Assembly: GCA_964556365.1 (NCBI GenBank)
Contig: CAZKVT010000001.1
Location: forward strand, 7,158-71,157
Direction of reading: 5' to 3'
Origin: an uncultured bacterium
GTDB taxonomy: Bacteria > Hydrothermota > UBA3072
Length of the DNA: 64,000 nt
The position numbers and the translations under genes are program-made. This document shows, in pieces, positions 30,342 through 52,087 of the stretch. The notes under the pieces were generated by a model. It had not been told where the DNA came from. It was given only the letters and a program-made list of their open reading frames with translations, and did no database searches. How positions within the stretch are numbered: the first letter of the stretch is position 1; each line of letters begins with the position of its first letter.

Positions 30342-30401
30342 CAATAGGAGGCTTTTAATATATGTATTTCCAACAGAATAATAGCAAAGGAAGGTTATTC
30401 T

Positions 30402-34316: not shown

Positions 34317-34318
34317 CA

Positions 34319-36064
34319 ATATTATATATTTTACTGTTAACTGCTTCTTACGGAGCAACGATTCTCTCCGACTCCATCGCCATCAAAATCGACCCGGAAG
34401 GCTTAAAAACTTTCGATAGAAAGTTTATAGTACAAATAGAAAATCAACGCGGGAGGGAAGAATTCGGCGACATAGAAATCAGATATAATAATGAACATTC
34501 ACAATTTGAAATTGTCGAGGCATACACGGAAACTGAGAACGGCAAAAAATATGAACCCGATGAAGAAGGAATCGCGGACCTTTCTGCTTATGAAACGGCT
34601 ATAGCACCCATGTATTCTGAAAATAGATTAAAGGTTGTAAGTTTCAAAAAAGTTAACTCCGGAGCAAAAATATGCTATCATTACAGAATAACATCTAAAA
34701 CTTCTTCCGTTTTACCCTTTTCGGGTACTCACGTCTTCCGGGGAAGGTCGCCTATAAAAAAGAAGAGTTTTTCTCTTTTTCTACCCGATACCATGAATAT
34801 AAATTTTAATATCGAACCCGACCAAAAATCAAAAGAGGAAAATGAAATCTGTTATACTTGGGAAAGGAAAAATTTACTCCGTATAAAGGATTACGAATAT
34901 AGACCTCCGTATTCTTATATTGCGGGAGAGCTTATCTTCTCCTCCGCCAATTCCTGGCAAGAAATGGGCGTTTCTGTATACGATATCCTTAGCAAAGAAA
35001 TAAAACCTCTTAAAAGAACAAAAGAAATAGATAAATTATATTTATTTGTCAAAGATTCGATAAGAATAATACCCATTAGTTTACCCCTAACAGGTTCAGG
35101 GATTTTTTCTCCAAAAGAAATTATGAAAAATAAATATGGCGCGCCCAGAGACAAAAACACACTTTTCATCTCTCTACTGCAAGGAGCACAGCATGAAGCA
35201 TTCCCCGCCTTCATCTGTATAGGCTCTTTGAGTAAAGAAACCCTCTATAAAACCTTACCAACTCTATCTCCTTTTTTCCGCCTTGCGACTGCTGTAAACA
35301 TAGGAGACAGCATTCTTTTCTTAGATCCATCATGCAAATACTGCCCTTCAAATTATGTGGACTTTGAAGGCAAAACAGCATGGATAATAAAAAAGGATAC
35401 TTCATACTTCTATAAAGTTCCGAAATCGAACAATAACAAAATAAGCGTCGATAGCCGGTATGAGATTTCAACCGAAGGAAACCTAAAAGCGAAAATTACC
35501 GCGGAAATAACAGGCTGTTTTTTTGAATCCTTTCAATACTGGCTCGATTCCGAGAAAGAAGACACGAAAAAGAAATTCCTGGAATACATACTATCGGAAA
35601 TCTCGGTTTCCGCGAAAGCAGACACAATAAATATAGACATAACAAAAAATAAGGTACAAATAAATTTAACGTTCGAATCTCCGAGATACGCCCCGAAACA
35701 GGGTAAATATATAACAATGAAACTTATCAACAACATAGTACCTTTTTTCCCGCTTTCATCTCTCGTAAATTCAGAAGATAGATTGTATCCTTATTATTTT
35801 GATTTTTCAAACGCGAAAGTAGAAGAAAAAACAATAGTTGTATATCCTAAAACTTTGAATTTAGAGCATTTACCTGAAAATATGGAATTATCCGGAGACG
35901 GATACTTCTTTAAGATAGAATCATCTTCAAAAGACGAGCAAATCAGATTCATCCGAAAAGCTTCATATACCAAAAGAATAATCTCTGAGAAAACAGATGT
36001 TGCCGCGGACATTAAAAAATTTTTAGACGAAAATACACTCGGTGTGCTTTTTGTGGAAAAATAA
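34319..36064 (+). CDS. DUF3857 + transglutaminase-like paralogue lacking the catalytic Cys and His (pseudoenzyme); non-canonical start
   Basis: The tracked ORF starts at 34610, but the frame is open from 34271. Residues upstream of the tracked start (ILYILLLTASYGATILSDSIAIKIDPEGLKTFDRKFIVQIEN...) align to the N-terminus of the upstream paralogue. AAGGAG at 34307-34312 is followed by ATA 34319, ATT 34328 and CTG 34334, with no ATG/GTG/TTG. In the core, KYGAPRD has Pro 35144-35146 in place of Cys, and FRLATAVN has lost the His. Confidence 0.65.
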   Translation: MLYILLLTASYGATILSDSIAIKIDPEGLKTFDRKFIVQIENQRGREEFGDIEIRYNNEHSQFEIVEAYTETENGKKYEPDEEGIADLSAYETAIAPMYSENRLKVVSFKKVNSGAKICYHYRITSKTSSVLPFSGTHVFRGRSPIKKKSFSLFLPDTMNINFNIEPDQKSKEENEICYTWERKNLLRIKDYEYRPPYSYIAGELIFSSANSWQEMGVSVYDILSKEIKPLKRTKEIDKLYLFVKDSIRIIPISLPLTGSGIFSPKEIMKNKYGAPRDKNTLFISLLQGAQHEAFPAFICIGSLSKETLYKTLPTLSPFFRLATAVNIGDSILFLDPSCKYCPSNYVDFEGKTAWIIKKDTSYFYKVPKSNNNKISVDSRYEISTEGNLKAKITAEITGCFFESFQYWLDSEKEDTKKKFLEYILSEISVSAKADTINIDITKNKVQINLTFESPRYAPKQGKYITMKLINNIVPFFPLSSLVNSEDRLYPYYFDFSNAKVEEKTIVVYPKTLNLEHLPENMELSGDGYFFKIESSSKDEQIRFIRKASYTKRIISEKTDVAADIKKFLDENTLGVLFVEK

Positions 36065-36121
36065 AATAGGTTAAACAAACAACAAATTTATTTTATTAAA
36101 CAGCTTTTATAGTGATATCTG

Positions 36122-36191
36122 TTTTACAAATCAACAGGACAGGTATTTGAACTCCATCCGGCAAGACCGCCGAGAGCTACTTTTAAATTAT
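36122..36191 (-). pseudogene. orphan 3'-terminal fragment (about 21 codons plus stop) of an MBL-rhodanese gene; left copy of a 70-nt direct repeat
   Basis: The minus-strand translation is (TGA)NNLKVALGGLAGWSSNTCPVDL(TAA), compared with the C-terminus ..DNLKVALGGLAGWNSNTCPVDL* of the intact gene at 48189..49550. By manual alignment 65 of 70 nt are identical. Confidence 0.8.
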
Positions 36192-36240
36192 TTCATTCCC
36201 CTATACGAATAAACTCTCCCAAATAAACAAAATAGCTTTC

Positions 36241-36269
36241 TTGACATAAGTTAAAAATATGTTTATAAT
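36241..36269 (+). promoter_or_regulatory. consensus sigma70 promoter (TTGACA-17-TATAAT), predicted to give a leaderless transcript of the UbiA-like gene
   Basis: TTGACA is at 36241-36246 and TATAAT at 36264-36269. The ATG at 36275 is only 5 nt after the -10 element and there is no SD. Confidence 0.6.
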
Positions 36270-36274
36270 AAAGT

Positions 36275-37207
36275 ATGCCTGAAGGAAAAACCAAATCAAA
36301 AAAGAACAATAAACCAGAAAGTTTCCTTAAAAGACTAACTAAATATCAAAAAGAACGATTCCCGATAATTCAATATTTAATATATATACTTTTATATGAC
36401 CTTGGATTCTTTATTTTAAGTTCATATTTAGTAAACAAATATGTTTCTTTTTCAAGTATCAATATTATAGGATTTATATCTGTTTTTCTAATTTTCTTCG
36501 AACTACGCTTATTCGATGAAATTAAAGACTATGATATAGACTTAAAATACTCTCCCCAACGACCGGTACAACGAGGCTTAATATCTATAAATGAAGTAAA
36601 AAAAATGTTATTAATCGTTATAATTTTATTATTATTCTGCAATACATTTTATGGAATTCAAAATTTCGTACTTATGGTAATAATTCAGATTTACATTATT
36701 ATAATGGCAAAAGAGTTTTTTATAGGTAAAAAGTTAAAAAAGAATAGAGTACTCTACGCGATGCTCCATATGGTTGTAATGAGCTTAATGACACTTTACA
36801 TAATTTCTCATGCGGTACTTGTTAGTATGTTAAATATACGTCATCTTACACTCCTTGCGATTTCTTACCTGATAGGTTTTATAATCGAAGTGGGAAGAAA
36901 AATCGAAGCTCCAAAGGAGGAGAAACCAGGAGTCGACAATTACTCTAAACTTCTTGGGCCTAAGAAAGCTGCTTACCTTCTATTTTTCCTCACCTTGTTA
37001 AGTTCTATCTTTACTTTTTCAATTTTCATACAATTGAACAATACCGCCGGAATAATTTCCTTATTCTCACCTCTTATAGTATTAATAGGGGTTATAAATT
37101 TTATAATGAACATGAACAAAAGAAATTCCGCTATAATGAATTTCTCGGGCATTATCTATAATATGCTTATCTTCTCGATATTCATCTCAAGTTATTTCTG
37201 GGATTAA
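36275..37207 (+). CDS. UbiA-superfamily-like integral membrane prenyltransferase (divergent)
   Basis: There are about 8 TM helices. The first Asp-rich motif and following loop are LFDEIKDYDIDLKYSPQRPVQRGLIS (compare NDxxDxxxD....RPLPxGxxS of UbiA/DGGGPS enzymes). The second motif is degenerate (EVGRKIEAPKEEKPGVDNYSKLLG). Confidence 0.5.
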   Translation: MPEGKTKSKKNNKPESFLKRLTKYQKERFPIIQYLIYILLYDLGFFILSSYLVNKYVSFSSINIIGFISVFLIFFELRLFDEIKDYDIDLKYSPQRPVQRGLISINEVKKMLLIVIILLLFCNTFYGIQNFVLMVIIQIYIIIMAKEFFIGKKLKKNRVLYAMLHMVVMSLMTLYIISHAVLVSMLNIRHLTLLAISYLIGFIIEVGRKIEAPKEEKPGVDNYSKLLGPKKAAYLLFFLTLLSSIFTFSIFIQLNNTAGIISLFSPLIVLIGVINFIMNMNKRNSAIMNFSGIIYNMLIFSIFISSYFWD

Positions 37208-37208
37208 A

Positions 37209-39833
37209 GTGATTATAAAATTTGATAAGATAACGGAAAAGGATTTACCTTTAATAGGTGGTAAAGCAAAAAATCTATTTCTCCTTTCAAAAACCAAAGT
37301 GCCTGTACCGCCCTGGTACGTTATCCCTTACACTTTTTTTGAAGACTTTTTCAAAAAAAAAGAACCCATTATCAATAGCATACTTAAATCTTTGGATTAT
37401 AACGATATAGACAAATCGTCTTCTTCCTTAAAAAGTATTATCATAAAAGAACCAGACCTCATTAAAAATATTGCGAATCAGATTTATGCGATACCACTAG
37501 ATTTTTTTCCCGTAAGTGTTCGTTCCTCAGGTATTTTTGAGGATCTTGCATCACATTCATTCGCCGGTCAGTATAGTTCTTTCATGAATTTGAAAAAAGA
37601 AGATCTACCCGAATACATATTAAAATGTATTTCTTCAGTCTTTAATAAACAAAACATAATTTATCATTATAAGAATAATCTAGATATTTTAAAAAGTAGA
37701 GTTTCTGTAATAATACAGAAAATGATATACTCCGAAAAATCAGGTGTCATTTTTACTAAAGATCCTTCAACAGGAAAAAACTACGTTGTCATAAATGCCG
37801 CTTACGGACAAGGAGAAGGAGTAGTCTCCGATACAGTAAAAGCAGATACATACATTTATGATAAATTAGGAAATAAAATTAAAGAAATCATAGAAGAAAA
37901 AGATACAAAAATGATGATATCTCTTAATAGAGGTTTAATTATTAAACCTTTAGAAAATAAAGAAAAGAATAAAGCTACTCTTAGCGAAGAAGAAATTAAA
38001 CGGTTAATAAATTTTTCTAAAAAGATAGAGACTCACTTTGGGAATCCTCAGGATATTGAATTCGCCATGGAAGGAAATAATATATACATCTTGCAAAGCA
38101 GAGACATCACAACAATAAAAAAGAAAGCTTTATTAACCTGGGACAATTCCAATATAGTAGAAAGTTTCTCAGGTCCCACAACACCTTTAACTTTTTCATT
38201 TGCAAATGAAGCATACACTATAATCTATCAACTTGTTTTACAGAAATTAGGGGTCAGGAAAAAGGATATTGAAGATAACGAAATGATATTCACCAATATG
38301 ATAGGGTTTATTAATAATAGGGTTTATTATTCACTTAATAGCTGGTTTAAAACATTGTCTTTTCTCCCCGCATATAACTCAAATAAAGGATTTATGGAAG
38401 GTATGATGGGGGTAAAAGATTCTTACGAGCTAAAAGAGAGTAAAAAGAAAAGATTCAGCTTTAAGGGCATATGGGAGTTAATTAAGATTTCAATAAAACT
38501 GTTGATTACATATTTAACGCACGAAAGAAATGTAAAAAGATTCACTAATTTGTATGAAAAAACCATTACTTCATTCAGAGAACGAATTGTTAAGGTAGAT
38601 CATTTAACCGAATACATCGATTTATACAAATTTATGAAGAAAAAACTTCTTTATAATTGGATTACTCCTATAAATAATGATATCTTCACCATGGTTTCCT
38701 ACGGATTATTAAAAAAACATGTTGAAAAAATAATAGGTAAGAATTCAGAAGGTATACAGAATGATTTGCTGTCAGGCGAAGGTGATATTGAAAGCACCAA
38801 GGTAACATATGCAATATGGCACATTGCGGACATGATTAAAGAGAACAAATTCGCTAAAGAAAGCATTAAAAATAATAATTCACAAGAATTTATGTCTATT
38901 CTAAACAACTCGATCGAATTAAAAGATATAAAGAATAAACTTGATGAATTTTTTGAGAAATACGGTAATAGAAGTGTCAACGAACTAAAACTTGAAACCC
39001 CAAATCTCAAAGAGACACCTGAGAAAATATTATCCCTTATAAAGCAGTACGTTTTAAAAAGCGGGGAAAAACCTTATACCGGCGACCAAAAAATTCGCAA
39101 AGAGGCTGAGCAAAAAATCTACGCCGCCCTGAAAAAATATTTCTTTCTCAAGAGATTTTTCACGCACCGTCTATTCAGGTTTTTCCTATCAGACGCAAGG
39201 AGATTTGTAAAGCATAGAGAAAACATGAGATTTTTCAGAACGAACGTTTTTGGCGCTTCAAAAATAATATTTGTCGAAATCGGAAAAAAGTTTGAGAAAA
39301 ATAACATAATAGAAAAGAAACAGGATATATTCTTTTTAACCCTCGAGGAAATAATTTCATATATCTATGGAACTTCCGTAACTTACAATCTTAAAAGTCT
39401 TATTTCTCTACGAAAAAAGGAATACGAGGATTGCGAAAATAAGGAACCCCCAGAACGTTTTGAGACAGAATTCCCTCCATACGCTTATATGAATGATATA
39501 TTCAAAGAGGAAGAAACAGGAAACCTGGGAGGAATCGGGTGCTCTCCCGGCAGAATAAAAGGAAAGGTACAATTTGTTGAAAACCCTTATGATGTTAAGG
39601 CTTTTGGGGATATAATGATAGCGGAACGAACGGATCCCGGCTGGCTGCCTGTTTTCCCCTTATTTAAAGCTATAATAATTGAGAGAGGAAGTATGCTATC
39701 CCATTCTGCCATAGTGGCAAGAGAAATGGGAATCCCTGCTATCGTCGGAGCAAGAGGAATCAAAGATCTACTAAAGGATGGAGATATAGTGGAGATGGAT
39801 GGCAGCACAGGACTAATAAAAAAAGAGCAATAA
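37209..39833 (+). CDS. PEP/pyruvate-binding (ATP-grasp) plus PEP-utilising mobile His-domain protein, rifampin-phosphotransferase-like architecture
   Basis: The N-terminal motifs are LIGGKAKNLFLL and VRSSGIFEDLASHSFAGQYSSF. The C-terminal swivel domain is ERTDPGWLPVFPLFKAIIIERGSMLSHSAIVAREMGIPAIVGA, carrying the phospho-His. A large central helical region is present and there is no PEP-binding TIM barrel. The start is GTG. Confidence 0.8.
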   Translation: MIIKFDKITEKDLPLIGGKAKNLFLLSKTKVPVPPWYVIPYTFFEDFFKKKEPIINSILKSLDYNDIDKSSSSLKSIIIKEPDLIKNIANQIYAIPLDFFPVSVRSSGIFEDLASHSFAGQYSSFMNLKKEDLPEYILKCISSVFNKQNIIYHYKNNLDILKSRVSVIIQKMIYSEKSGVIFTKDPSTGKNYVVINAAYGQGEGVVSDTVKADTYIYDKLGNKIKEIIEEKDTKMMISLNRGLIIKPLENKEKNKATLSEEEIKRLINFSKKIETHFGNPQDIEFAMEGNNIYILQSRDITTIKKKALLTWDNSNIVESFSGPTTPLTFSFANEAYTIIYQLVLQKLGVRKKDIEDNEMIFTNMIGFINNRVYYSLNSWFKTLSFLPAYNSNKGFMEGMMGVKDSYELKESKKKRFSFKGIWELIKISIKLLITYLTHERNVKRFTNLYEKTITSFRERIVKVDHLTEYIDLYKFMKKKLLYNWITPINNDIFTMVSYGLLKKHVEKIIGKNSEGIQNDLLSGEGDIESTKVTYAIWHIADMIKENKFAKESIKNNNSQEFMSILNNSIELKDIKNKLDEFFEKYGNRSVNELKLETPNLKETPEKILSLIKQYVLKSGEKPYTGDQKIRKEAEQKIYAALKKYFFLKRFFTHRLFRFFLSDARRFVKHRENMRFFRTNVFGASKIIFVEIGKKFEKNNIIEKKQDIFFLTLEEIISYIYGTSVTYNLKSLISLRKKEYEDCENKEPPERFETEFPPYAYMNDIFKEEETGNLGGIGCSPGRIKGKVQFVENPYDVKAFGDIMIAERTDPGWLPVFPLFKAIIIERGSMLSHSAIVAREMGIPAIVGARGIKDLLKDGDIVEMDGSTGLIKKEQ

Positions 39834-40712
39834 ATGTCCCTGATAGACTTATATAAAAAGAAAAGCTATTATAAAATAAAAAAATTTAGAAATAAAGATA
39901 GCAGTTTTACAGCTTACATAAGGGATATTAACCAAAAAAAAATTGCAGGATTGGGATTCTTAGATTTAGAGAAAGATTACGGAAATTTTAAAAAGCTAAT
40001 CGAAAATACAGAATTATGGTTTCGAGAAAACCAAATCAATAAATACTATGCTCCTATGAATTTCAACAGCTGGTACGAATATAGGATTGCTTCTGAGCAC
40101 CTTGAAAACACTCCTTTTCCTTTAGAAAAAATATACCCCGATTATTATCTCGATTTTATTAAAAAATCCGGTTTTCTCCCGAGCATAAATTATTTTTCAT
40201 ATATTATAACCAAGCCCGAACCTCTAATGACACATTTAAAACCCTTTGTCAGAAAAATGAGAAAATTGGGTTTTAGAGTTAGAGAGATTACTACCGGAGA
40301 AAAGGATTTAGTTTTAGAAAGCATATATGATATTTCAGTAGAAAGCTTCAAAGGCGCGCCTCTTTTCGAAGAGATACCCTATAAAGAATTTTATTCATTA
40401 TACGAACCTTTAATCTCGAAAATTCAAGAACGTTATATTATAATCGCAGAAAAAAAAGATGTAATTGAAGGCTTCATTTTTTCTCTTCCTTTTGAAGATA
40501 AACTCACTCTTAAAACAGTGGGAGTCAGACCTTCTATTCAAGGAAAATATATAGCTCCCACACTTATTTACGAAACCTATAAAAGAGGATGTGAAGACAA
40601 TTTCAAGAAATTTTTCCACGCTTATATGCGAGAAGGCATTTCAACCCATACCTTCTCGAAAAGGCACGGTGATATTTACCGGAAATACACTCTTTATGAA
40701 AAAATCCTTTGA
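39834..40712 (+). CDS. GNAT-like acyltransferase (tentative)
   Basis: The C-terminal region YIIIAEKKDVIEGFIFSLP...LKTVGVRPSIQGKYIAPTLIYETYKRG resembles the GNAT beta4-alpha3 (R/Q)xxGxG/A acyl-CoA binding segment. The N-terminal half is unassigned. Confidence 0.4.
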   Translation: MSLIDLYKKKSYYKIKKFRNKDSSFTAYIRDINQKKIAGLGFLDLEKDYGNFKKLIENTELWFRENQINKYYAPMNFNSWYEYRIASEHLENTPFPLEKIYPDYYLDFIKKSGFLPSINYFSYIITKPEPLMTHLKPFVRKMRKLGFRVREITTGEKDLVLESIYDISVESFKGAPLFEEIPYKEFYSLYEPLISKIQERYIIIAEKKDVIEGFIFSLPFEDKLTLKTVGVRPSIQGKYIAPTLIYETYKRGCEDNFKKFFHAYMREGISTHTFSKRHGDIYRKYTLYEKIL

Positions 40713-42129
40713 GAATCCGGTAGAACTCGTCTTCGATACAATCAAAGATAAAAAAAAGAAAGCACTAATCCAACCAATTAACAGTCTGTTCAAATTCAGG
40801 TTCGATAGTATATCCTTCGAGGATTTAAAAAGAGAAGCTTTAAGATACTCAAGCCTCTTAAGAAAACATTATAAAATAGGAAAAGGAACCAAAGTGCTAC
40901 TTATGGTTCCCTTTTCTATCGAAATGTATATAAGCGTAATAGCAATATTTCTCCTGGGAGGATGTGTTATTTTCATAGAACCCTGGATTGGCAAAAATTT
41001 ATTTAAAAAAGTTTTGAATTCTGTGAATACAAAATTCGTTATCTCGAGCTTTAAAACCAGAATACTGTTAAGGCTTTTTGGATTTATCGATAGAAATAAA
41101 ATCTTTATCAAACCTGCAATAAGAAATAAAAAAGGGGTACTAATTAAAGAGGAAAAAAACCAAATATCAAAGGCAAATATAGCTGTAATAACTTTTTCAA
41201 CCGGCAGTAGTGGTATACCTAAACCCATAAAGAGGAGTTACGGAGATTTAGAATACCAAATGTATAGACTCTCTCGGCACATAAAAAAAGAGAAAAGCGT
41301 AGACTTCGTCTCTTTCCCCAATCTTGTTCTTTACAGTTTATCCAAACACACTACCACAATTATACCTGAAAAAGGTTTCAAAGGCTCTACCCCTATAAAT
41401 AAAAAAACACTAAAAGACTGTATTGATAAAGAAAATCTCAGCCGCCTGTTCCTCAGTGTTTCGCATCTTTCCACTATAAAAGATAAGGATATCTTTGAAA
41501 AAATCGACTCTATCTATACAGGAGGCAGTACAATCGAAAAAAGCTTTATAAGAAAGTATAACCTCGCGAAAAAAATTCATATTTTATACGGATCCACCGA
41601 AATTGAACCCATAGCAACTATTAATGGTATCGATTTCCTAAGAATAAAGGAAAGAGGAATACCGGTCGGGAAAATAGATAATTCTTTAGAATTAAAAATC
41701 GAACCTATGGAAGAAAACATTGGTGAGATTTTAATAAAATACAAAGATAAAACAAAATCTCCAATGGAATGGATTAGGACGGGGGACATCGGATATTTAA
41801 ATAAAGATAATGTACTGATACTAATGGGAAGAAAAATAGATGTTTTTCCCATTAAGGGAATATATATATATCCTTACGAGATACAAAATATAATGGATGA
41901 AGAGGAAATCACACAAAAGATTATACCCTATGTTAAAAACGAAAGACTTTTAATAATTGTAGAAGGGGAAGAGAATAAAAACATATCAATAAAAATAGAT
42001 AAAGCCCTTAAAGAAAGAAAGATATCTCCGGATAAAACAGTATTTATGAAAGAAATACCAAGAGATCCAAGACATAGAGCAAAAATTGATATGAAGAAAC
42101 TATCTAAAAAGATAAAAAACTATTTTTGA
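40696..42129 (+). CDS. AMP-dependent synthetase/ligase (acyl/aryl adenylating enzyme)
   Basis: The motifs are FSTGSSGIPKPIKRS (A3, T/S-S-G-x-x-G-x-P-K), ILYGSTEIEP (A5) and RTGDIGYLNKDNVLILMGRKID (A7/A8). I prefer the ATG at 40696 (MKKSFENP...) to the tracked 40591, which would overlap the upstream gene by 122 nt. Confidence 0.8.
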   Translation: MKKSFENPVELVFDTIKDKKKKALIQPINSLFKFRFDSISFEDLKREALRYSSLLRKHYKIGKGTKVLLMVPFSIEMYISVIAIFLLGGCVIFIEPWIGKNLFKKVLNSVNTKFVISSFKTRILLRLFGFIDRNKIFIKPAIRNKKGVLIKEEKNQISKANIAVITFSTGSSGIPKPIKRSYGDLEYQMYRLSRHIKKEKSVDFVSFPNLVLYSLSKHTTTIIPEKGFKGSTPINKKTLKDCIDKENLSRLFLSVSHLSTIKDKDIFEKIDSIYTGGSTIEKSFIRKYNLAKKIHILYGSTEIEPIATINGIDFLRIKERGIPVGKIDNSLELKIEPMEENIGEILIKYKDKTKSPMEWIRTGDIGYLNKDNVLILMGRKIDVFPIKGIYIYPYEIQNIMDEEEITQKIIPYVKNERLLIIVEGEENKNISIKIDKALKERKISPDKTVFMKEIPRDPRHRAKIDMKKLSKKIKNYF

Positions 42130-44108
42130 TTCTTTAAAAAAGTTCCCAATATTATCGAATCACAAAAATAAGCTGTAACTATTGCGATTGCAGAGAGAAT
42201 CCCAAAATAATTTATCGTTGTTAACTTCGCAAAGATCAAAAGAAAGAAACCGGTAGAAAGAATGAAAGAAGTGATAAACATAGGTTTTATTGCTTCCTTT
42301 TTCTCTCCATGTTTATTGGCGTAAAGATAATGTATTGTATCATCAACAACAATTCCCATTACAATAGGGGTTATAATTATAGTTCCTACATCAAGAGGTA
42401 TTCCAAACAAACCCATAATACCCAATACCGTTATCACCGGAAAAATATTAGGATAGAATGATTTAACTCCGCTTTTAAAACCAAAAAATAATATAATCAC
42501 TGTAAAGATAACAAGTATAGAAATGGGAAATGAGGAAAATTGACTGTCTTCTAGATATTTAATAAGTTTTACATAAAGAGGTAAATAACCGGATGCTTTT
42601 ATTTCTTTTTTCGAAAATTGCTCAAAATAATCTATCAGGTTCTTTATAATTTTTTCGACTTCTCTTGCGCTAACCATGGGTATAAAAACAGTGATTCTTA
42701 AGGTTTTTCTTCCATTACCAGGTCTTATCACATAAGTTTGTTCTACTTCACCGAACATCTTAGAATAACTGAGGAAATTAGTCATCGTAATATTATTGAT
42801 AGAAATCGAGTTGTATCCATAATGAGATTTCAAGCTATCTTGAAACAATTCAACAGTTTTATCGATTTCCAGATCTTCCTCATTTGTCTCCACAAGAAGC
42901 TCTAACGGAAGATAAAATCCAATATTTTCCTCTATCCATTCCGAATCTTTTCTAACTATATCACCTTCTCTTAACATACCAATAGAATATGTGTCTACCC
43001 TCAAAAATTTCATCCCAAAAACAAAAACGCTTAAAAATACTAAAGAAATTGTTAAAACGATTCCTTTTCTCTTGCTTGTAATTTTAGTTATAATATTTTC
43101 CAACTTTTTAAATGTTAAAAAATTCTTCTTTGATAAAGAAAACTTATCTATGAAAATAGAAAAAACGGCAATTGTTACGAAAAATTCGATCAAGACTCCA
43201 ACACCACCGTAAAAACCAAGTTGTTTAACACATGTTATTCTTGAAGAAACAAGCGACAGGTATCCAAAAAAAGTAGTGAGAGAAGTAAGTAAACAGGGCA
43301 CAGCGATATGTGAAAGTTTTTTCTTTTTGTCGTCTGCCAGATTTAAAGTAAATACAATATAAACAATATCGGATAAACCGTATATTAAAATAAGAACCGG
43401 GAGCATAGAAGTAATCATGTTAACAGGATCTCCCAGTACAACAAAAACACTCATTAAAACTAATATCGAAAATACCACACAAAACATGGAAAGAAAAATG
43501 ATTCTCCAGTCCTTTAAAATAATCCCCGAAAGTATAAAAATGTAAGCAAAAACTATAACAATAAATAGAGTAACATTTTCCTGTGTTACCACATTCAACC
43601 TATTATATAAAACAGTTATACCCGCCAGATGATAATCAAATGCTGATTTCTCCATTATTTCTTTTATTCTTTTTATTATTTTACCCCTTTTCTTTTCTAT
43701 AATTTTATCTTTTACAAGAGGCACAATAATCATTGTGGAAAGATAATCTTCGGAAATAAGCATCTGTTTTGCTTCTTTATCTAAAAAAGGAGAGGTTATT
43801 GAAACAGGCAAATCGGTATATTGAACATTGCGCAATGAATCTTCAATTCTTAATAATTGCTTTATATTCTCCTCGGTAATAAAAGAATATTTTGATTCCA
43901 TAGCAATTATAACTTGCTCATCATTACCAAATTTTTCGAGAAAACTTTTGTATTCATGTAATTGAGGATCGTTTTCAGGAAACCATATATCGAGATTGTT
44001 GGAAATTTTTAAACCTTTCAAAGAAACAATAGAAAAAATGAATATTATTAACAGCAAAAAAGATGTAATTATTTTATATTTGTTCAGAAAATAAATACAT
44101 TTATACAT
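42120..44108 (-). CDS. RND-superfamily exporter of the MMPL/HpnN (COG1033) type
   Basis: An N-terminal TM helix is followed by a periplasmic loop starting NLDIWFPENDPQLHEYKSFLEKFGNDEQVIIAME. Two bundles of about 5-6 TM helices are separated by a second soluble loop. Its 3' end overlaps the convergent ligase gene by 10 nt. Confidence 0.7.
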   Translation of the reverse strand: MYKCIYFLNKYKIITSFLLLIIFIFSIVSLKGLKISNNLDIWFPENDPQLHEYKSFLEKFGNDEQVIIAMESKYSFITEENIKQLLRIEDSLRNVQYTDLPVSITSPFLDKEAKQMLISEDYLSTMIIVPLVKDKIIEKKRGKIIKRIKEIMEKSAFDYHLAGITVLYNRLNVVTQENVTLFIVIVFAYIFILSGIILKDWRIIFLSMFCVVFSILVLMSVFVVLGDPVNMITSMLPVLILIYGLSDIVYIVFTLNLADDKKKKLSHIAVPCLLTSLTTFFGYLSLVSSRITCVKQLGFYGGVGVLIEFFVTIAVFSIFIDKFSLSKKNFLTFKKLENIITKITSKRKGIVLTISLVFLSVFVFGMKFLRVDTYSIGMLREGDIVRKDSEWIEENIGFYLPLELLVETNEEDLEIDKTVELFQDSLKSHYGYNSISINNITMTNFLSYSKMFGEVEQTYVIRPGNGRKTLRITVFIPMVSAREVEKIIKNLIDYFEQFSKKEIKASGYLPLYVKLIKYLEDSQFSSFPISILVIFTVIILFFGFKSGVKSFYPNIFPVITVLGIMGLFGIPLDVGTIIITPIVMGIVVDDTIHYLYANKHGEKKEAIKPMFITSFILSTGFFLLIFAKLTTINYFGILSAIAIVTAYFCDSIILGTFLKNQK

Positions 44109-45462
44109 TTAACACCCCTTTTAACTGAAGGACTAAAATGATTAAAACTATAAAAATAGAAATAAGGTTTCTTAAACTTCTATTCAAATTATAACTTGGG
44201 CTATCGATCAACTTTCTTCTAATAGTCGTATATATAATATCGGACAAGATACATCCGAATATAAAAACTAAAGAGAAACCCAAATTATTATAGGGTTTAT
44301 ACAGTAATTGAGGTATCATTAAAATAAATATACCCGACAATAAAAAACCAATATTACCAAAAATGCTTTTATGTTTTTCGATTAAACGTACCTTTAGCCT
44401 ACCATCGATAAACCAGTGACGCCAGAGTAATGTAAAATGGACTCCTGCCGAACATAAAAATGCCATATATAAAAATCTTTCTTGTGAAAATACATTAGCA
44501 GCAAAAACTATAAGTATTGGAATTAAAAAAATCCTCAACAAAGAACCTACTCTAAAAGACCTGGACTCTTCAGCCGGTTCAATATAAAATATTAAATTCA
44601 TAAAAACGAATCCGATAAAAAACAAAACTATCGGAATGTAATAAACGAATCCAGCCAAACTCCATGCCGCATAACTGGCAAGGATTAAAGTTATAAGTCC
44701 ACTAAAACTTATCTTTTTCATCTTCAAACCCAGGATAAATGAAACTATAATAATAAGAGACAATGTCGCGACCTGTAGGATAATTTCTTCTGTGGGTTTG
44801 GCGGATAACTTAAATAATATGAAAAAAGTTCCGAACGGCACGAGTATATTGTCGCTACCTTTAAGAGAAATTAATTCTAAAGCAGTTACAAGAAGGGCAA
44901 CCATGAACCCCAGCAACAAGGAATTCAATCTACTGATATCGGATAACAAGAGAAGAGGTATGTGTACAATAAGAAAAGTTATAAAGAAAAAGCTCACTGA
45001 ACCTTCAGTGCTTTTATCTTGATATTGCACTCTATACTTAATATAACCATAGGCTTTCCCTATAATAGCAGCTATGGGATCCGAAACTGTCATAACCGCA
45101 ACGGAAATTGCGTAAACAACCGGAACATTCTTTCCGAGCGCAAAAAGAAGAAATATTGCGATCGGAAAGTAAAATTCTCCTTCCGTTTCTCTTTCAATCC
45201 CCGTGACTCCTTCGATAAGACCTCTTTTTTTACCTGCGAAAATCAATAATACAAAAAGCAAACAAAGAATAAAAACTGTCAGTCTAAAATTAAAAATAAC
45301 AGGAAAAAACATTGCAAGCATACCGCTTAAAAAGTGTACCAGTTTTCTGGTTAATTCTACACTCAAACGGGTTTTTCTATGTATCATTTCTGCGGTTACG
45401 AAAAATAAAATGTAACATAAAGAAATGATTATAGCTTTTACTAATTCCGTCTCCCAACCCAT
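44101..45462 (-). CDS. polytopic membrane protein with N-terminal polyprenol/dolichol/phytol-kinase-like (CTP-transferase-1 superfamily) domain
   Basis: LTRKLVHFLSGM (RKxxH) and VSDPIAAIIGKAYG (D..A..(I/V)G...G) match signatures of Sec59/VTE5-type kinases. About 230 aa of additional TM helices lie at the C-terminus. It is coupled to its neighbours (TAATG and an 8-nt overlap). Confidence 0.5.
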   Translation of the reverse strand: MGWETELVKAIIISLCYILFFVTAEMIHRKTRLSVELTRKLVHFLSGMLAMFFPVIFNFRLTVFILCLLFVLLIFAGKKRGLIEGVTGIERETEGEFYFPIAIFLLFALGKNVPVVYAISVAVMTVSDPIAAIIGKAYGYIKYRVQYQDKSTEGSVSFFFITFLIVHIPLLLLSDISRLNSLLLGFMVALLVTALELISLKGSDNILVPFGTFFILFKLSAKPTEEIILQVATLSLIIIVSFILGLKMKKISFSGLITLILASYAAWSLAGFVYYIPIVLFFIGFVFMNLIFYIEPAEESRSFRVGSLLRIFLIPILIVFAANVFSQERFLYMAFLCSAGVHFTLLWRHWFIDGRLKVRLIEKHKSIFGNIGFLLSGIFILMIPQLLYKPYNNLGFSLVFIFGCILSDIIYTTIRRKLIDSPSYNLNRSLRNLISIFIVLIILVLQLKGVLNV

Positions 45463-46574
45463 TATAATTTTTCCTCGATTATAAATCTCTTATAGAAAAA
45501 CGCTTTCGAATTCTCAAGAAGTTTCTCAGCTATTTCGTCATGGGATTTAACAGATTTTTGTAGTCTCGCCGGACATTTTCTATCGGCGAGCATATTCCAA
45601 TATACAAATCTGCATCCCTTTTTTCCTGATTTCAATAGGTTTTCGTAAATTTCTTCAAAAGTATTATAATCTAAATATTCGAAGATATCCGAAAGATTGT
45701 AACCGTTAAAAGCGTTTTCTTTTTTTAAACCTTCTTCGACAGAACCTTGAATAATTACTAATTTATCAAGATTTGATTTAACCCTTTCAAAATTCTCCTT
45801 ACGTAAATAATGAGGAAGAATATGCCTAAAATTACCATTTAAAATGAAATCGATATATGGATTCTCTTTGGCGGGAATATTTATAAGTCCCTTATTGACT
45901 CTATTTTTTATATTCTTCGCGACGGGAACTTTAACATAATCAAAAAACTCCGGAGCCCTACCCAAACGTCCCATAACAAAACGGCCAAAGAAAACTCTAA
46001 ACATTAATTTCCACCGAAAAGAATTCCATTTTCCATAAAAGAATTCTTCCCTATCTTCTTTATTTCTATCTACAAACAAAGACTGTATAGTATTTCTATT
46101 ATGAATAAAAGGAATAACATATATTCTGAATATCTTAAAATATTTTTCAAACTTTCCTTCGAAAATAATCCCGTTTTTTATCTTGTTTAAATTATTATTC
46201 CAGAAATCTCTCGATTCTGACGGTAATTCCGACGCAAAGCTTTTATAAATCGACACTCTTTCTTTACAGGGATATACACCAAAAAATCTCAACACTTCTT
46301 CATAGCTAAGTCTTTTTATAGCCGCTTCTTTCAAATGAAAAAGTGCTATCTGAGCTTTACTAATATCGACACCAATAACTCTTTTAGGAAAACCTGTAAG
46401 CAAAGAAAAAGTATTATCTCCGCCGGAAACCACAGAAAGATAAACTCCATCTTTTTTGATATCCAAAGCTTTTAACAAAGCTTCAGTATCCTCCCAACAG
46501 TTCGCGTATCGAATAATACTAAATGTGTTCTTATTCAAATTATTATTTTTTTTACTTCGAGGATTTCCTTCCAT
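45462..46574 (-). CDS. DUF3419 / BtaA-like SAM-dependent (3-amino-3-carboxypropyl) transferase family protein
   Basis: IRYANCWEDTEALLKALDIKKDGVYLSVVSGGDNTFSLL and VDISKAQIALFHLKEAAI match the Y.qCWEDp...AL....S.G.N and D.n.aQ.aLleLK blocks I recall for BtaA/DUF3419. Confidence 0.65.
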   Translation of the reverse strand: MEGNPRSKKNNNLNKNTFSIIRYANCWEDTEALLKALDIKKDGVYLSVVSGGDNTFSLLTGFPKRVIGVDISKAQIALFHLKEAAIKRLSYEEVLRFFGVYPCKERVSIYKSFASELPSESRDFWNNNLNKIKNGIIFEGKFEKYFKIFRIYVIPFIHNRNTIQSLFVDRNKEDREEFFYGKWNSFRWKLMFRVFFGRFVMGRLGRAPEFFDYVKVPVAKNIKNRVNKGLINIPAKENPYIDFILNGNFRHILPHYLRKENFERVKSNLDKLVIIQGSVEEGLKKENAFNGYNLSDIFEYLDYNTFEEIYENLLKSGKKGCRFVYWNMLADRKCPARLQKSVKSHDEIAEKLLENSKAFFYKRFIIEEKL

Positions 46575-47835
46575 ACTTTTTATGCGCTAAAGCAAAATCC
46601 CCGGCAGAAAGAGCTCCAATAATAGATATTTCTCCCCCCAGAATTATCGCCGTGCAAATTTCAGCAAATTTCTGAGATTTTCCACTTCCTAGACAATCTA
46701 CTAAACTTAAACACTCAGCCTGTGTCGGCAGAGAAGTTCCTCCTCCCACAGTACCTACAACTAAATTAGGAAGAGTAACCGCTACGTACAACTTATCATC
46801 ATCCGTAATATCGAGCCGTGTAATACCTACAGCCGCTTCAGACACACATGCTACATCCTGCCCACAGGCTATAAATATCGCAGCAAGCGCATTGGCGTAA
46901 TGCCCCTGCGACCCAATCGAACCGGATTGCACCGCACCTATAACAGACATGTTATAATATGCTACCATATCTTCTGGTTCAGCATGCAATAACCTTTTAC
47001 AAATTTTTCTTGGTATAAAAACTTCAGCCGTAACTTTTTTACCTCTAACAAAAAGATAAGACATTGCTGTTGCCTTTTTATCGCCTGATAAATTGCTTTC
47101 AATAAACCATTTTTTCGGCTTTGTCGGAGAATTTTCCATTATATACTGACAAATAACATCGGTACAGAACGTAACCATATTTTGCCCCGAAGCATCGCCC
47201 GTCTTGTACTCAAAATTAAGATAAACATGATTTCCTTCAACTGTAGCCCTGACGTCTTCAAGAATACCATGACTTGTTTCTTTAGAGACAACATTCTTGA
47301 ATTTATCGAAATTATCAACAACCCAGATTAAAAATTCCCCGGCTTTAATCAAATTATCAAAAATAAATCCAGGCGCTCTGGAAACTCTTTCAGTAAGACA
47401 CATAACTCTAGCCCCACCACATAAATTTATAACCTTCGCGCCTCTATTATGCGATGCGATAAGTGCTCCCTCAGTTGTTGCCATAGGAATGTAAAAATCC
47501 CCATGCGAATATATACCATTCACTCTAATCGGACCAACTACACCAACCGGCATCTGCGCTAAGCCAATATAATTCTCAATATTTCCTTCAAAAATTTCCG
47601 GATTATCGATCGTTTTTTTCCCAGACAAAAAATCAAACTCAAAACCTTGTTTTTCTAAAGTCCTTAACCTCTTTAACTGGTCTTCCTTCGTCAGAGAAGT
47701 TTCTCTTGGTAAAGAAGGAGGCATTTTTTCTTCTTTGATAGATCTCGATTGAAGTTTTTTAATAACAGCCTCTTTAGATCTTCCTTTAAGAATTGCTTCT
47801 ATAATTTCCTTCGATATATCTTTTGATACCGGCAT
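46552..47835 (-). CDS. hmgA: class I hydroxymethylglutaryl-CoA reductase (soluble catalytic domain)
   Basis: The motifs are IENYIGLAQMPVGVVGPIRVNG, YIPMATTEGALIAS, TGDASGQNMV and GTVGGGTSLPTQAECL, corresponding to the class I ENVIG / DAMGxN / GTVGGGT blocks. Confidence 0.85.
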   Translation of the reverse strand: MPVSKDISKEIIEAILKGRSKEAVIKKLQSRSIKEEKMPPSLPRETSLTKEDQLKRLRTLEKQGFEFDFLSGKKTIDNPEIFEGNIENYIGLAQMPVGVVGPIRVNGIYSHGDFYIPMATTEGALIASHNRGAKVINLCGGARVMCLTERVSRAPGFIFDNLIKAGEFLIWVVDNFDKFKNVVSKETSHGILEDVRATVEGNHVYLNFEYKTGDASGQNMVTFCTDVICQYIMENSPTKPKKWFIESNLSGDKKATAMSYLFVRGKKVTAEVFIPRKICKRLLHAEPEDMVAYYNMSVIGAVQSGSIGSQGHYANALAAIFIACGQDVACVSEAAVGITRLDITDDDKLYVAVTLPNLVVGTVGGGTSLPTQAECLSLVDCLGSGKSQKFAEICTAIILGGEISIIGALSAGDFALAHKKYGRKSSK

Positions 47836-47992
47836 CCAATCAACCCCTTTACTTGAAATAAGATATACTCGTAAAAGATATCAACCATTGGTTCATTAAG
47901 ACTGTATTCCTCCCAATTTTATGAGCGCCTTTAAGTAAATACTTACCCGAATTTTTAACTATAACAAATCTAGCCTGTACGGACATATTGTT

Positions 47993-48021
47993 ATTATAAT
48001 TACTTTCATGGTTTATGTCAA
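47993..48021 (-). promoter_or_regulatory. consensus sigma70 promoter (TTGACA-17-TATAAT on minus strand) for the HMGR operon
   Basis: The minus-strand sequence is cTTGACAtaaaccatgaaagtaatTATAATaac. The -35 is at 48016-48021 and the -10 at 47993-47998. This predicts a leader of about 150 nt before the ATG at 47835. Confidence 0.6.
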
Positions 48022-48186
48022 GAAAAACTTTTCCTGCAAGAAAATCGTTTCTGGCTCTTTTATTATCTATTCTATCTTTATTGGTTATAGTTATATATTA
48101 AAAAACGAAACAACAACTATTACTATATTATTCTCATACAAGCGAACTACAATATTTTTAAGAATATACTTTAAGATAGAATATTC

Positions 48187-48256
48187 TTTTACAAATCAAC
48201 AGGACAGGTGTTCGAATTCCAACCGGCAAGACCGCCGAGAGCTACTTTCAAATTAT
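48187..48256. repeat. right copy of the 70-nt direct repeat (3' end of the intact MBL-rhodanese gene)
   Basis: It matches 36122-36191 in the same orientation with 5 mismatches. It is immediately preceded by an 8-bp perfect inverted repeat, AAGAATAT (48160-48167) / ATATTCTT (48181-48188). Confidence 0.8.
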
Positions 48257-49550
48257 CCCACCCTTCTTTCTTAAGAAGACTGGCTGCCATCATTGAACGA
48301 AGACCACTTCCGCAAAAAATACAAACAGGTTTTTCTTTCGGCACTTCATCCATTCTTTCGTAAAGTCGAGTAACAGGAATATTTAAAGCATCGGGTATTT
48401 TACCTTTTTCTTTTATTTCCTCTTCACTCCTGACATCGAGAATTACAATCTCCTCTCCCTTATCCAGCAAACGGCATAAATCCTGAATTTTTAAAGTTCC
48501 TATCGACGCGCTTTCTTTACCTGAAGTATTCCAGCTAAACATTCCACCGGAAAGATAACCTGTAATATTATCATAACCTATTCTTATCAATAATTTCATA
48601 ACAGACAAAGGGTCATCTGTTTTATTAACAAGAAGTATCCTCTTATCATAAGGCAGAAACCAACCGGCAAAATTAGGAATTCCTCCTTGCCATATAAAAA
48701 TAGAACCGGGGATATGAGAACCTGCAAAACTCGACTCCATCCGGGAATCGAGAACAACCGCATCCTCTTTTTCCTTTGAAAATTCATCCGGAGAAAGAGG
48801 AACAGGCACCGGTAGGGAACCCAATATAGGAGCGCCCTCGACATTTAATTTTTCCATCTGCTTAAAATAAAAAGGCCTTTCTAATTCTTTTGATATATTA
48901 TTAATAAAATCTTTTTTTTCAGTAAACTGCAGCTTCGAATTTAACTTTTTCTCGAGCCCAATAGTAGTCCACGGTCTATCCGCGATTTCTCCCCCGCATA
49001 CAGAACCGGCACCGTGAGCCGGGCAAACAATAACCCCATCACCGAGCGAAAAGAATTTATGGAAAATAGTATCGTAAAGCATATCCGCCATTTCTTTCAT
49101 ATTATTTTTACCAAACAAATCGACTCTTCCGACATCACCCGCAAAAAGAGCGTCCCCCGTAAAAAGAATCCAGGGAGAACCGCTGACGTCAAAAAGAAGA
49201 TAACTCATACTGCCTTTGGTGTGACCCGGAGAAAAAATTGCCTCGATTTTATAAGAACCTACCTTCCATTCCTGCCCGTCATTTACCTCATAACCGTACT
49301 TATAATCTAACCCCGTATCGGCATGAAAAATTTCCGCGCCGGTTACCTCAGAAAGTTCTCTCGAACCTACAACATAATCCTCGTTACGATGAGTTTCAAA
49401 AATATATTTAATATTATAACCCTTACGGGAAGCTAAAAACAGATAAACGTCGATGTCCCGCCGGGGATCGACTACAAACGCTTCTTTATTATGCCCCAAA
49501 ATATAAGAATTGTGAGCTAAACCTTCCGATTCGACTTTTTCGAAAAGCAA
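48189..49550 (-). CDS. MBL-fold hydrolase/persulfide-dioxygenase-like domain fused to two rhodanese domains
   Basis: The MBL region has ETHRNEDYV in place of HxHxDH, plus SPGHTKGS, FTGDALF and CPAHG. The first rhodanese-like domain lacks an active Cys. The second has the active-site loop CIFCGSGLRS. Confidence 0.75.
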   Translation of the reverse strand: MLFEKVESEGLAHNSYILGHNKEAFVVDPRRDIDVYLFLASRKGYNIKYIFETHRNEDYVVGSRELSEVTGAEIFHADTGLDYKYGYEVNDGQEWKVGSYKIEAIFSPGHTKGSMSYLLFDVSGSPWILFTGDALFAGDVGRVDLFGKNNMKEMADMLYDTIFHKFFSLGDGVIVCPAHGAGSVCGGEIADRPWTTIGLEKKLNSKLQFTEKKDFINNISKELERPFYFKQMEKLNVEGAPILGSLPVPVPLSPDEFSKEKEDAVVLDSRMESSFAGSHIPGSIFIWQGGIPNFAGWFLPYDKRILLVNKTDDPLSVMKLLIRIGYDNITGYLSGGMFSWNTSGKESASIGTLKIQDLCRLLDKGEEIVILDVRSEEEIKEKGKIPDALNIPVTRLYERMDEVPKEKPVCIFCGSGLRSMMAASLLKKEGWDNLKVALGGLAGWNSNTCPVDL

Positions 49551-49581
49551 GTTTTCCTCCCTTTCTACTAAAGCCTATAAA

Positions 49582-49764
49582 CTACTCGGCAACCTCTTCA
49601 GCCTTAAAAGAAAAATAATTCCTTTCTTTGAACTCCTCCCTTTTTCCTTCATTCCAGTTGTTAACAGGCCTATAATAACCTACAACTCTCGAATAAACCT
49701 CAGCCCTAACCGCGATGATTTTCTCCTTAGAAACTTCCTTCCTTTCAGCAATAGTCTCTTCCAT
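49582..49764 (-). CDS. stand-alone 60-aa protein homologous to the C-terminal glycyl-radical segment of class III ribonucleotide reductase (NrdD)
   Basis: VYSRVVGYYRPVNNWNEGKREEFKERNYF matches the NrdD C-terminal signature (Y)SR(I/V)xGY(Y/L)xxVxxWNxGKxxExxxR. The strong SD AAGGAGGG lies 6 nt upstream. No Zn-ribbon cysteines and no catalytic barrel are present. Confidence 0.65.
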   Translation of the reverse strand: MEETIAERKEVSKEKIIAVRAEVYSRVVGYYRPVNNWNEGKREEFKERNYFSFKAEEVAE

Positions 49765-51014: not shown

Positions 51015-51254
51015 ATGAATTTTGAAGAATCTCTTAATAAGCTTGAAGATATTGTCAAAAAATTGGAAAAAGGAGAGATTTCTCTTGAAGAATCTCTTCC
51101 TCTATTCGAAAAAGGCATGGAAATCCTAAGTAATCTTAAAGACTATCTCGCTGATGCTGAAATCAAAATAGAGAAATTAATAAAAGATAGTGAAGGTAAA
51201 TTTAAAACCGATGAATATAGAGAATTACCTGAAAAATTGGAAGAAGAGAGTTGA
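51015..51254 (+). CDS. xseB: exodeoxyribonuclease VII small subunit
   Basis: MNFEESLNKLEDIVKKLEKGEISLEESLPLFEKGMEILSNLKDYL is a typical XseB sequence. The gene is followed by ispA and dxs, as in the E. coli xseB-ispA-dxs operon. Confidence 0.85.
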   Translation: MNFEESLNKLEDIVKKLEKGEISLEESLPLFEKGMEILSNLKDYLADAEIKIEKLIKDSEGKFKTDEYRELPEKLEEES

Positions 51255-52086
51255 CGAAAAATTAAACGAACACCTTCCCTCGGAAGAGGAATATCCTCCA
51301 TTATTACACAAAGCAATGCGGTACACAGTACTCGCCGGAGGGAAAAGAATTCGACCTATTCTAATGCTTACAGCCTATTCTCTCTCCGGAGGGCATAATT
51401 TTGATGAAATTATGCCTGTTTCATCGGCCATTGAACTAATTCACGCTTATTCTCTGATACACGACGACCTCCCCGCGATGGATAATGATGATTACAGGAG
51501 GGGGCTCCCCAGCTCGCATAAAAAATTCGGGGAAGATATTGCCATCCTGGCAGGTGACGCTCTTTTTTCTCATGCTTTTTACATTATAGCGCATAGTCAT
51601 CTTAAGCCTATTTTAAAAGAAAAGGTTTTAAAGACTCTAACTACAACCATTGGGAATAAAGGAATCATCGGCGGACAAACAGAAGATGTGCTATTCGATT
51701 CATCCAACAAGTCTCCCAAACTGTTAAGATACATACATTCTCATAAAACGGCTTCCTTTTTTTCCGCGTCATGTGAAATAGGAACAATACTCGCGGAAGC
51801 AAAAGAAGATCAAATTTTAGCTGCCAGAAAAGGCGGGCTTCTAATGGGTATGGCTTTTCAGATACAGGATGACATTCTAGACGTAGAAGGGAAAAAAGAA
51901 GAAATGGGAAAAGAAGTAAGAAAAGACAACAATAAACTTACTTATCCCTCAATTTACGGAACCGATTTTTCGAAAATCATAGCAAAGAAATATAGCTCTC
52001 TCGCTTTAAAACAACTAAAAATACTGGAACCTAAAGATGAAACATTTGGAAATATATTAAACTTTTTAATCGCAAGGAAGAACTAA
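51211..52086 (+). CDS. ispA: (2E,6E)-farnesyl/geranylgeranyl diphosphate synthase (short-chain trans-prenyl diphosphate synthase)
   Basis: The FARM motif is LIHDDLPAMDNDDYRRG and the SARM motif is FQIQDDILD, with GKRIRP also present. I prefer the ATG at 51211 to the tracked GTG at 51190. Either start overlaps the end of xseB. Confidence 0.85.
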   Translation: MNIENYLKNWKKRVDEKLNEHLPSEEEYPPLLHKAMRYTVLAGGKRIRPILMLTAYSLSGGHNFDEIMPVSSAIELIHAYSLIHDDLPAMDNDDYRRGLPSSHKKFGEDIAILAGDALFSHAFYIIAHSHLKPILKEKVLKTLTTTIGNKGIIGGQTEDVLFDSSNKSPKLLRYIHSHKTASFFSASCEIGTILAEAKEDQILAARKGGLLMGMAFQIQDDILDVEGKKEEMGKEVRKDNNKLTYPSIYGTDFSKIIAKKYSSLALKQLKILEPKDETFGNILNFLIARKN

Positions 52087-52087
52087 A

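Follow-up and report, generated by a model that had tools for sequence, protein, structure and literature searches.

Within a 64,000-nucleotide window, the whole stretch of DNA analysed here (contig CAZKVT010000001.1, assembly GCA_964556365.1, from an uncultured candidate-division WOR-3 bacterium), we describe a segment that is shown, by comparison with related contigs, to be an accessory genomic island. It comprises positions 36192-48186 plus one copy of a 70-nt direct repeat (12,065 bp in all) and sits exactly at the stop codon of a gene for an MBL-fold and rhodanese protein (MBL-rhodanese). In at least two species the island behaves as a presence/absence polymorphism, located at the same codon and set against unrelated distal neighbours. 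We put at roughly 50% the probability that the island is gained, lost and exchanged by general recombination of the host, acting through the repeat and the neighbouring genes. This route is favoured because the apparent exchange points vary between species and tracts nearly identical to island-free strains end inside the repeat. A previous sequence-only reading of the window, made without database searches, had proposed an integrated island at this place, and both the empty sites and the second species support it. The features on which the argument turns are as follows.

36122-36191, minus strand: left repeat copy (psi), duplicating the last 22 codons and stop of MBL-rhodanese without a gene body
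36192-36236: left adaptor (spacer), from psi to the promoter of the cluster, island-borne
48026-48186: right adaptor, intergenic, from the MBL-rhodanese stop to the promoter, island-borne
48187-48256, minus strand: right repeat copy, the functional 3' end of the MBL-fold/rhodanese gene, with its stop at 48189-48191
48189-49550, minus strand: target gene, MBL-fold and rhodanese protein, 453 aa
35937-36121: flank patch tied to the island haplotype, ~8% divergent from the island-free contig L025 versus 0-1% further left

The two repeat copies lie in the same orientation, are identical at 65/70 positions and start 12,065 bp apart, values that had been obtained by eye and that hold under proper alignment. 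Between 30 and 54 kb this is the largest direct repeat; the remaining ones are at most 36 nt long and of low identity. The right copy matches the end of the MBL-rhodanese gene, to which it had been assigned. The frame of the left copy (36124-36192) translates as NNLKVALGGLAGWSSNTCPVDL* and is shut by an in-frame TGA immediately upstream, at 36193-36195, with no gene body behind it, again in agreement with the first description. Nor is psi part of a longer decayed paralogue, since its homology to the gene ends about two codons from the boundary drawn by eye. Four of the five differences between the copies are synonymous, as had been noted, and all four fall at third codon positions; the fifth is a second-position change that exchanges Ser and Asn. 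The sequence of psi is identical across five independent contigs, and the left and right junctions both recur in separate assemblies (L001, L002, L005, L008 and L011-L016).

Neither adaptor was recovered from relatives that lack the island: the left one has no match in them and the right one is missing. A homology between 48026-48188 and the DNA that follows MBL-rhodanese in relatives was suggestive by eye and was set aside as non-significant in blastn-short searches. The 8-bp inverted repeat reported at the right junction does exist (48160-48167 / 48181-48188), and we rejected it as a terminator because its fold is no more stable than that of shuffled sequence (z = -1.2).

MBL-rhodanese orthologues were compared in 25 loci, with relatives drawn from genomes and metagenomes. 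The empty site that had been predicted, in which a DUF3857 gene lies directly beside MBL-rhodanese, is found in the metagenome contig L025 (Ga0315554_1002468), which has a single copy of the repeat between flanks that are ~97% identical to those of the window. Its genes run in the order ispA, a small open reading frame (ORF), the rhodanese gene, MBL-rhodanese, a convergent DUF3857 gene, a second DUF3857 gene and a 278-aa gene. Positions 1-4035 of L025 correspond to window 52218-48184 at 97.3% identity and positions 3964-10641 to window 36190-29496; the 72 nt covered by both are the repeat. L025 carries private substitutions in both repeat and flank, so it represents a haplotype in its own right and did not arise by collapse of the window type during assembly. 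Other relatives, both closer and more distant and including L018, L026, L027 and L036, have neither the cluster nor the DUF3857 block. Downstream of MBL-rhodanese the entire region is hypervariable.

The MBL-rhodanese gene is itself a mosaic. Between the window and L025, identity is 99% over 48200-49199 and 91-93% over 49200-49599, a profile that looks like a recombination tract ending inside the repeat. Mosaicism of this kind indicates frequent allelic recombination in the population. In a separate comparison, with L018, the gene is 81-92% identical over 48800-49199 and 97-98% identical upstream of that.

A second species carries the island in the same place. Contig L043, which encodes an 80%-identical relative of the island's 292-aa protein, has the order carbamoyltransferase, DUF5989, 2-hydroxyacid dehydrogenase, 160-aa gene, psi, spacer, UbiA, PEP-synthase-like gene, 292-aa gene and ligase. 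Here psi occupies L043 6294-6365, the same place as in the species of the window (species 1), and homology to the window begins exactly at the psi stop codon (L043 6294 = window 36125). Contig L046, from the same sample, provides the other side: rhodanese, MBL-rhodanese, HMG-CoA reductase, DUF3419, membrane protein and transporter. Three island-free conspecifics with MBL-rhodanese (L022, L035 and L037) are 98-99.8% identical to the outer flanks of L043 and L046. Beyond psi the DNA is species-specific, with the second DUF3857 gene (DUF3857b) in species 1 and the 160-aa gene in species 2.

A search for the cluster at other loci and in other genomes, which the earlier reading had proposed, found it in L043/L046, in L044/L048 and in L049. 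In the third lineage (L044/L048) it lies between peptidyl-prolyl isomerase and polysaccharide-modification genes, its proteins are 71-82% identical to those of the window, and homology to the window sets in at the promoter (36238) and, on the other side, at the ribosome-binding region of HMG-CoA reductase. In L049 (10001-21278), a fourth lineage, all eight genes run in one direction as one operon, which encodes HMG-CoA reductase, DUF3419, a 465-aa membrane protein, MMPL, UbiA, a PEP-synthase-like enzyme, a GNAT-like protein and an AMP ligase. Neither of these lineages has psi or an MBL-rhodanese gene with its cluster. The occurrence of the same eight genes in such different contexts argues that they form a conserved functional module. 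The spacer at 36192-36236, psi and the right piece at 48026-48186 are adaptors specific to the MBL-rhodanese location.

How the repeat copies have evolved is the most informative part of the comparison. Between species 1 and species 2, psi differs at 7/66 sites (89% identity), all of them third codon positions (chance ~5e-4); identity is 58% in the left spacer and 56% in the right adaptor, and neither adaptor holds a conserved block suggestive of recombinase arm sites. Each psi has species-specific codon states in common with the functional alleles of its own host. In species 2 the two copies differ at one position and have private states in common (GAA, AAC and TAG-TGAA). The restriction of psi differences to third positions, together with the pattern of the species 2 copies, shows that psi has not evolved as dead DNA: functional gene ends have repeatedly swapped sequence with it or served as the template for copying it anew.

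At all five variable positions the right copy of species 1 has the empty-site state, so that the proposal that the element supplies the functional gene end finds no support here. The corresponding scheme, with the left copy native and the right copy foreign, was overturned by L025, whose single copy matches the right one in type. The left copy has the consensus states of relatives and no private change. Compared codon by codon with L025, the right copy of the window is of L025 type over codons 1-17 and agrees with psi over codons 19-23; CCT and TAA occur in both window copies, CCA and TGA at the same places in L025. The change of type along the functional copy thus falls between codons 16 and 19 in species 1 (empty-site to psi) and between codons 5 and 16 in species 2 (island-free to island), switch points that rest on one or two island-free alleles per species and that later allelic recombination could also produce. 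In species 2, L046 and L037 differ at 4/3,047 nt before the repeat and at 5/69 in the last 69 nt (Fisher p = 5e-7). Beside psi, each species has a patch that diverges from its island-free conspecifics, ~185 nt at 8% in species 1 and ~196 nt that cannot be aligned in species 2.

The island encodes no recombinase of its own. The lack of an integrase, a transposase and a tRNA, noted earlier from the sequence, was confirmed with Pfam, NCBIfam and PHROGs and by a tRNA scan of the window. No integrase, transposase, recombinase or phage function was detected in the eight island proteins with these three databases, PHROGs giving a generic kinase match only, and the 64-kb window contains no tRNA and no Rfam family. 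Phage structural, replication and integration genes are absent from the island, and it has no relative in a viral contig collection. The eight genes leave no spare ORF space between them. Within ~10 kb on each side, public annotations list no recombinase-type Pfam, some genes there having no Pfam match, and the species 2 copy of the island is likewise without a recombinase. Base composition does not clearly separate the segment from its flanks, as the sequence-only reading had judged. The GC content of the island is 31.9% versus 38.0% in the rest of the window, a difference that is not decisive because window positions 1-6000 are equally GC-poor (31.8%). In GC, third-position GC (GC3) and tetranucleotide profiles the island lies at the low-GC end, inside the range of the window.

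We favour a mechanism that would need only host functions. The 70-nt duplicate of the gene tail would be the recombination substrate, and general recombination, either RecA-type or of the short-homology kind, would drive gain, loss and exchange of the island and adjoining DNA. This could proceed by a Campbell-type single crossover and deletion between the repeats, or by allelic double crossovers ending inside the repeat. Repeated swaps of segments between the functional tail and psi would keep psi evolving like coding sequence, and tracts would break off at the point where island-bearing and island-free chromosomes cease to be homologous. The earlier interpretation of the repeats as attL and attR, left by integration, is upheld in part: the architecture and the empty site agree with it, but the exchange points fit general recombination at least as well.

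Several considerations weigh against general recombination as the driver. A duplicated 3' gene end is the classical mark of islands placed by tyrosine or serine integrases; our integrase search covers the 64-kb window, and an integrase may be present elsewhere in the genome. The junction between psi and the spacer falls at the same codon in both species, as expected from a site-specific enzyme, a pattern that one inherited junction would also give. The divergent patches beside psi show that ordinary homology in the flanking gene, and not the repeat, could have served the latest transfers. Third-position identities between the two species are equal for island genes (0.59-0.70) and MBL-rhodanese (0.65). 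The divergence of island versus core genes, tried as a test for horizontal transfer, consequently gave no discrimination, and equal identity is therefore compatible with old vertical co-inheritance and repeated loss. The exchange points are themselves drawn from one or two island-free alleles per species, and among the assembled contigs no circular or excised form was observed.

Alternatively, the island could be a remnant or satellite of a site-specific integrative element, similar to a cis-mobilizable element (CIME), a serious rival that explains the canonical architecture and the common junction equally well and that we regard as less probable than general recombination. The repeats would then be attL and attR, and the 3' end of MBL-rhodanese would be the target of a tyrosine or serine integrase that was lost from the island or is supplied in trans. 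The element-borne copy would serve as the functional end while integrated, giving both copies a coding-like evolution. Arguing for this case, the architecture is canonical (duplicated 3' end, precise empty site and intact target gene), the junction lies at the same codon in two species with different distal flanks, the restriction of psi differences to third positions fits displaced host alleles, and CIMEs and trans-mobilised islands have already been described. Counter to this, the islands of both species lack an integrase, an excisionase or any relic of one and are filled by the eight cargo genes, and at none of the 25 related loci (contigs) is the site occupied by a different element or the repeat present twice. 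The two species differ in their inferred exchange points, the private states common to the species 2 copies would require an extra gene-conversion step, and the adaptors, 56-58% conserved, have no conserved arm-like blocks.

It is also conceivable, and in our judgement unlikely, that no horizontal mobility was involved. A single illegitimate insertion in a common ancestor would have duplicated the 70 nt, followed by vertical inheritance with many precise losses between the repeats, while gene conversion from the functional copy kept psi coding-like. The equal third-position divergence of island genes and MBL-rhodanese, the psi/spacer junction common to both species and the near-identity of the species 2 copies (one difference) are all in keeping with this history, and 70-nt direct repeats suffice as substrates for deletion. 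Yet at least six independent precise losses would be needed among ~12 sampled lineages, and the species-specific distal flanks would have to have arisen identically in island-bearing and island-free haplotypes. Moreover, psi of species 1 lacks the derived states of its own functional copy, which implies that conversion is not ongoing there, and the presence of the eight-gene module in unrelated contexts elsewhere implies that it has moved at least between those lineages. An assembly artefact or chance repeat, with mis-joining at a short repeat, is very improbable. All data are metagenome assemblies and contigs often break near the locus; against an artefact, both junctions recur across samples and assemblers, L025 has private substitutions in repeat and flank, species 2 has three independent island-free contigs, and 65/70 identity is far beyond chance.

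A more specific and tentative reading concerns psi, which might be a portable homology arm, making the island a recombinase-free, self-targeting cassette; we hold this to be less likely than not. Host homologous recombination could then insert such a cassette behind the MBL-rhodanese gene of any recipient, whatever its downstream DNA; the target gene would stay intact, and the arm of the cassette would be continually re-templated from functional alleles. If true, this would amount to mobility of a biosynthetic cluster that needs zero mobile-element genes.

Between the adaptors lie exactly eight genes in two convergent operons, as first described, each operon with its own promoter.

36237-36269, plus strand: left operon promoter, TTGACA-17-TATAAT at 36241-36269, kept in L043 and L044
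36275-37207, plus strand: UbiA-family prenyltransferase
37209-39833, plus strand: PEP-synthase / PPDK-like ATP-dependent enzyme with PigC/Rph-like architecture
39834-40712, plus strand: 292-aa protein, no family match
40696-42129, plus strand: AMP-binding acyl-AMP/CoA ligase, 477 aa as called on public contigs
42120-44108, minus strand: RND / MMPL-type membrane transporter (HAE3, HpnN-like)
44101-45462, minus strand: 453-aa polytopic membrane protein, no family match
45462-46574, minus strand: DUF3419 protein
46552-47835, minus strand: class I HMG-CoA reductase
47993-48025, minus strand: right operon promoter, TTGACA-17-TATAAT at 48021-47993, kept in L046 and L048

By their predicted functions, the eight genes are a conserved module for biosynthesis of lipid or isoprenoid type and for export, and the module probably makes and exports an unusual lipid. 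The DUF3419 family includes betaine-lipid synthase BtaA/BTA1-like proteins (PMC10685587). Two of the eight proteins, those of 292 and 453 aa, have no family match, and sequence searches of the Protein Data Bank gave no match. The 292-aa protein falls in just three protein clusters of a 5.8-billion-protein database and has no relative in viral or plasmid collections except one plasmid match at 27% identity. Its orthologue in L049 has weak GNAT matches, and its AlphaFold model (pLDDT 45.7) is too poor for a structure search. In the literature, including the six papers that mention DUF3419, we found no description of the eight-gene cluster. HMG-CoA reductase is the only mevalonate-pathway gene of the island; the right flank (51190-54388) holds chromosomal ispA (polyprenyl synthase) and dxs (methylerythritol phosphate, MEP, pathway) ~3 kb from the island. 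This proximity may have a functional meaning or be a coincidence.

The inward-facing consensus promoters described earlier are indeed perfect at 36241 (plus) and 48021 (minus), but they are conserved promoters of the cluster and not ends of an element. The 13-mer TTTCTTGACATAA is common to both (36237-36249 and 48013-48025). The 13-bp perfect inverted repeat that it forms was considered as a pair of transposon ends and dismissed, being the conserved -35 region of both promoters, which is present also where the cluster sits elsewhere. Across the 64 kb there are four perfect TTGACA-N16-18-TATAAT promoters, at 31460, 36241, 47993 (minus) and 62231, versus 0.04 expected, and three of the four head operons in the stretch at 31-48 kb, which is variable.

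Just outside the left promoter (36236/36237), strains of the Joint Genome Institute (JGI) samples 3300031278 and 3300031331 have an inserted multi-copy element. Its terminus reads ...AATCTGTACCACCATGTGCCTGATTACCCCG, an ORF reads out of its end, contigs break inside it, and it has no Rfam match.

L003 11627-11678; L004 9579-9705; L009 1-32; L006 1-118; L007 1-118: termini and junctions of the multi-copy element

The same terminus also ends the unrelated contigs L006 and L007. Behind it the cluster resumes in L009, whose first 8 nt belong to the element and are followed by 24 nt that nearly duplicate the target. A second gene truncated by the cluster ('Gene X') had been postulated where L003 and L004 diverge exactly at 36237; we discarded it, as the diverging DNA is the terminus of the multi-copy element.

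Further variation surrounds the island. The block 31311-36121, with the 278-aa gene and two DUF3857/transglutaminase-like genes, is an insertion or replacement itself; no flanking repeat was seen at it, and it has its own perfect consensus promoter, that at 31460. In L018, L026, L027 and L036 the 216-aa gene (window 30664-31314) directly follows MBL-rhodanese, and ~190 nt of unrelated DNA replaces 31311-36121. The stretch from about 25500 to 31310 is hypervariable, with 70-85% nucleotide identity to L018 and L026 versus 95-97% on either side. The 216-aa protein is 62% identical in L025, where adjacent genes are 98-99% identical, and in L019 the TPR/GDSL and carbamoyltransferase genes are inverted. 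On the other side of the island, a conserved ORF of 57-60 aa lies between the two rhodanese-domain genes (~49570-49760; L011 8072-8254; L046 5039-5212). Public annotation assigns it to PF13597 (NRDD, the anaerobic ribonucleotide reductase family), odd at such a size.

Looking across the entire analysis, the locus shows the accessory genome turning over in WOR-3, a clean case verified by comparison, in a phylum known from metagenomes only. A full biosynthetic module is gained and lost at a defined nucleotide position without a mobility gene. If the repeat acts via host recombination, clusters can spread with a short copy of the tail of a conserved neighbour, and predictors keyed to integrases, tRNAs or skewed composition would miss such an island. 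The presence or absence of the module among strains also provides a natural contrast for assigning a function to the cargo.

Several known systems resemble parts of this arrangement. CIMEs are att-flanked, integrase-less elements that derive from integrative and conjugative elements (ICEs) or integrative and mobilizable elements (IMEs), such as those of the ICESt1/ICESt3 family, found in Streptococcus at the 3' end of fda; their att sites are shared with an ICE, resident or incoming, and the integrase of that ICE acts on them. As in CIMEs, direct repeats here duplicate the 3' end of a protein gene and enclose cargo only, without recombination or transfer genes. Unlike CIMEs, no ICE or integrase is found at the site in the 25 related loci (contigs), and the exchange points do not look fixed. 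Islands, prophages and ICEs placed by tyrosine integrases at tRNA, tmRNA or protein-gene 3' ends likewise have a duplicated end, an intact gene, a precise empty site and promoters of their own. In contrast to these classical islands, there is no integrase, excisionase, tRNA, mobility or transfer gene, and the repeat is long (70 nt) and imperfect. A composite transposon or element bounded by insertion sequences (IS) finds no match in the island, which has no transposase and whose terminal inverted repeat consists of promoters. Flexible islands are exchanged via flanking core genes, as in capsule and O-antigen switching and in the 'additive' and 'replacement' islands of marine bacteria. The present island resembles them in its within-species presence/absence, in the mosaicism of neighbouring genes and in the hypervariability of a region where the DUF3857 block and the surroundings of the 216-aa gene vary too. 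It differs in having a boundary exactly at a stop codon, marked by psi, where theirs have no duplicated fragment of a neighbouring gene.

Among described systems, the nearest analogue is the microcin H47 island of Escherichia coli. That island is ~13 kb long, has extensive imperfect direct repeats and encodes no recombinase; other strains have hybrid empty sites, with crossovers in four stretches of identity (PMC3191183, PMC5426353). Experiments demonstrated that it excises and integrates, independently of RecA (Azpiroz et al. 2011, PMC3191183; Azpiroz and Lavina 2017, PMC5426353). Both islands are small, carry secondary-metabolism cargo between long imperfect direct repeats and lack a recombinase of their own. 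The right copies here appear, from few alleles, to be hybrids with different switch points in the two species, which would match the varied crossovers of H47. The mobility of the H47 island has been shown by experiment, whereas that of the WOR-3 island is read from sequences. The two also differ in phylum and in cargo, and the repeats here, unlike those of H47, are the 3' end of a protein gene that needs to stay intact. As the H47 island and CIMEs attest, islands bracketed by a duplicated gene tail are known, integrase-less ones included. What sets the present island apart is the coding-like evolution of an orphan repeat and an apparently undescribed eight-gene lipid module.

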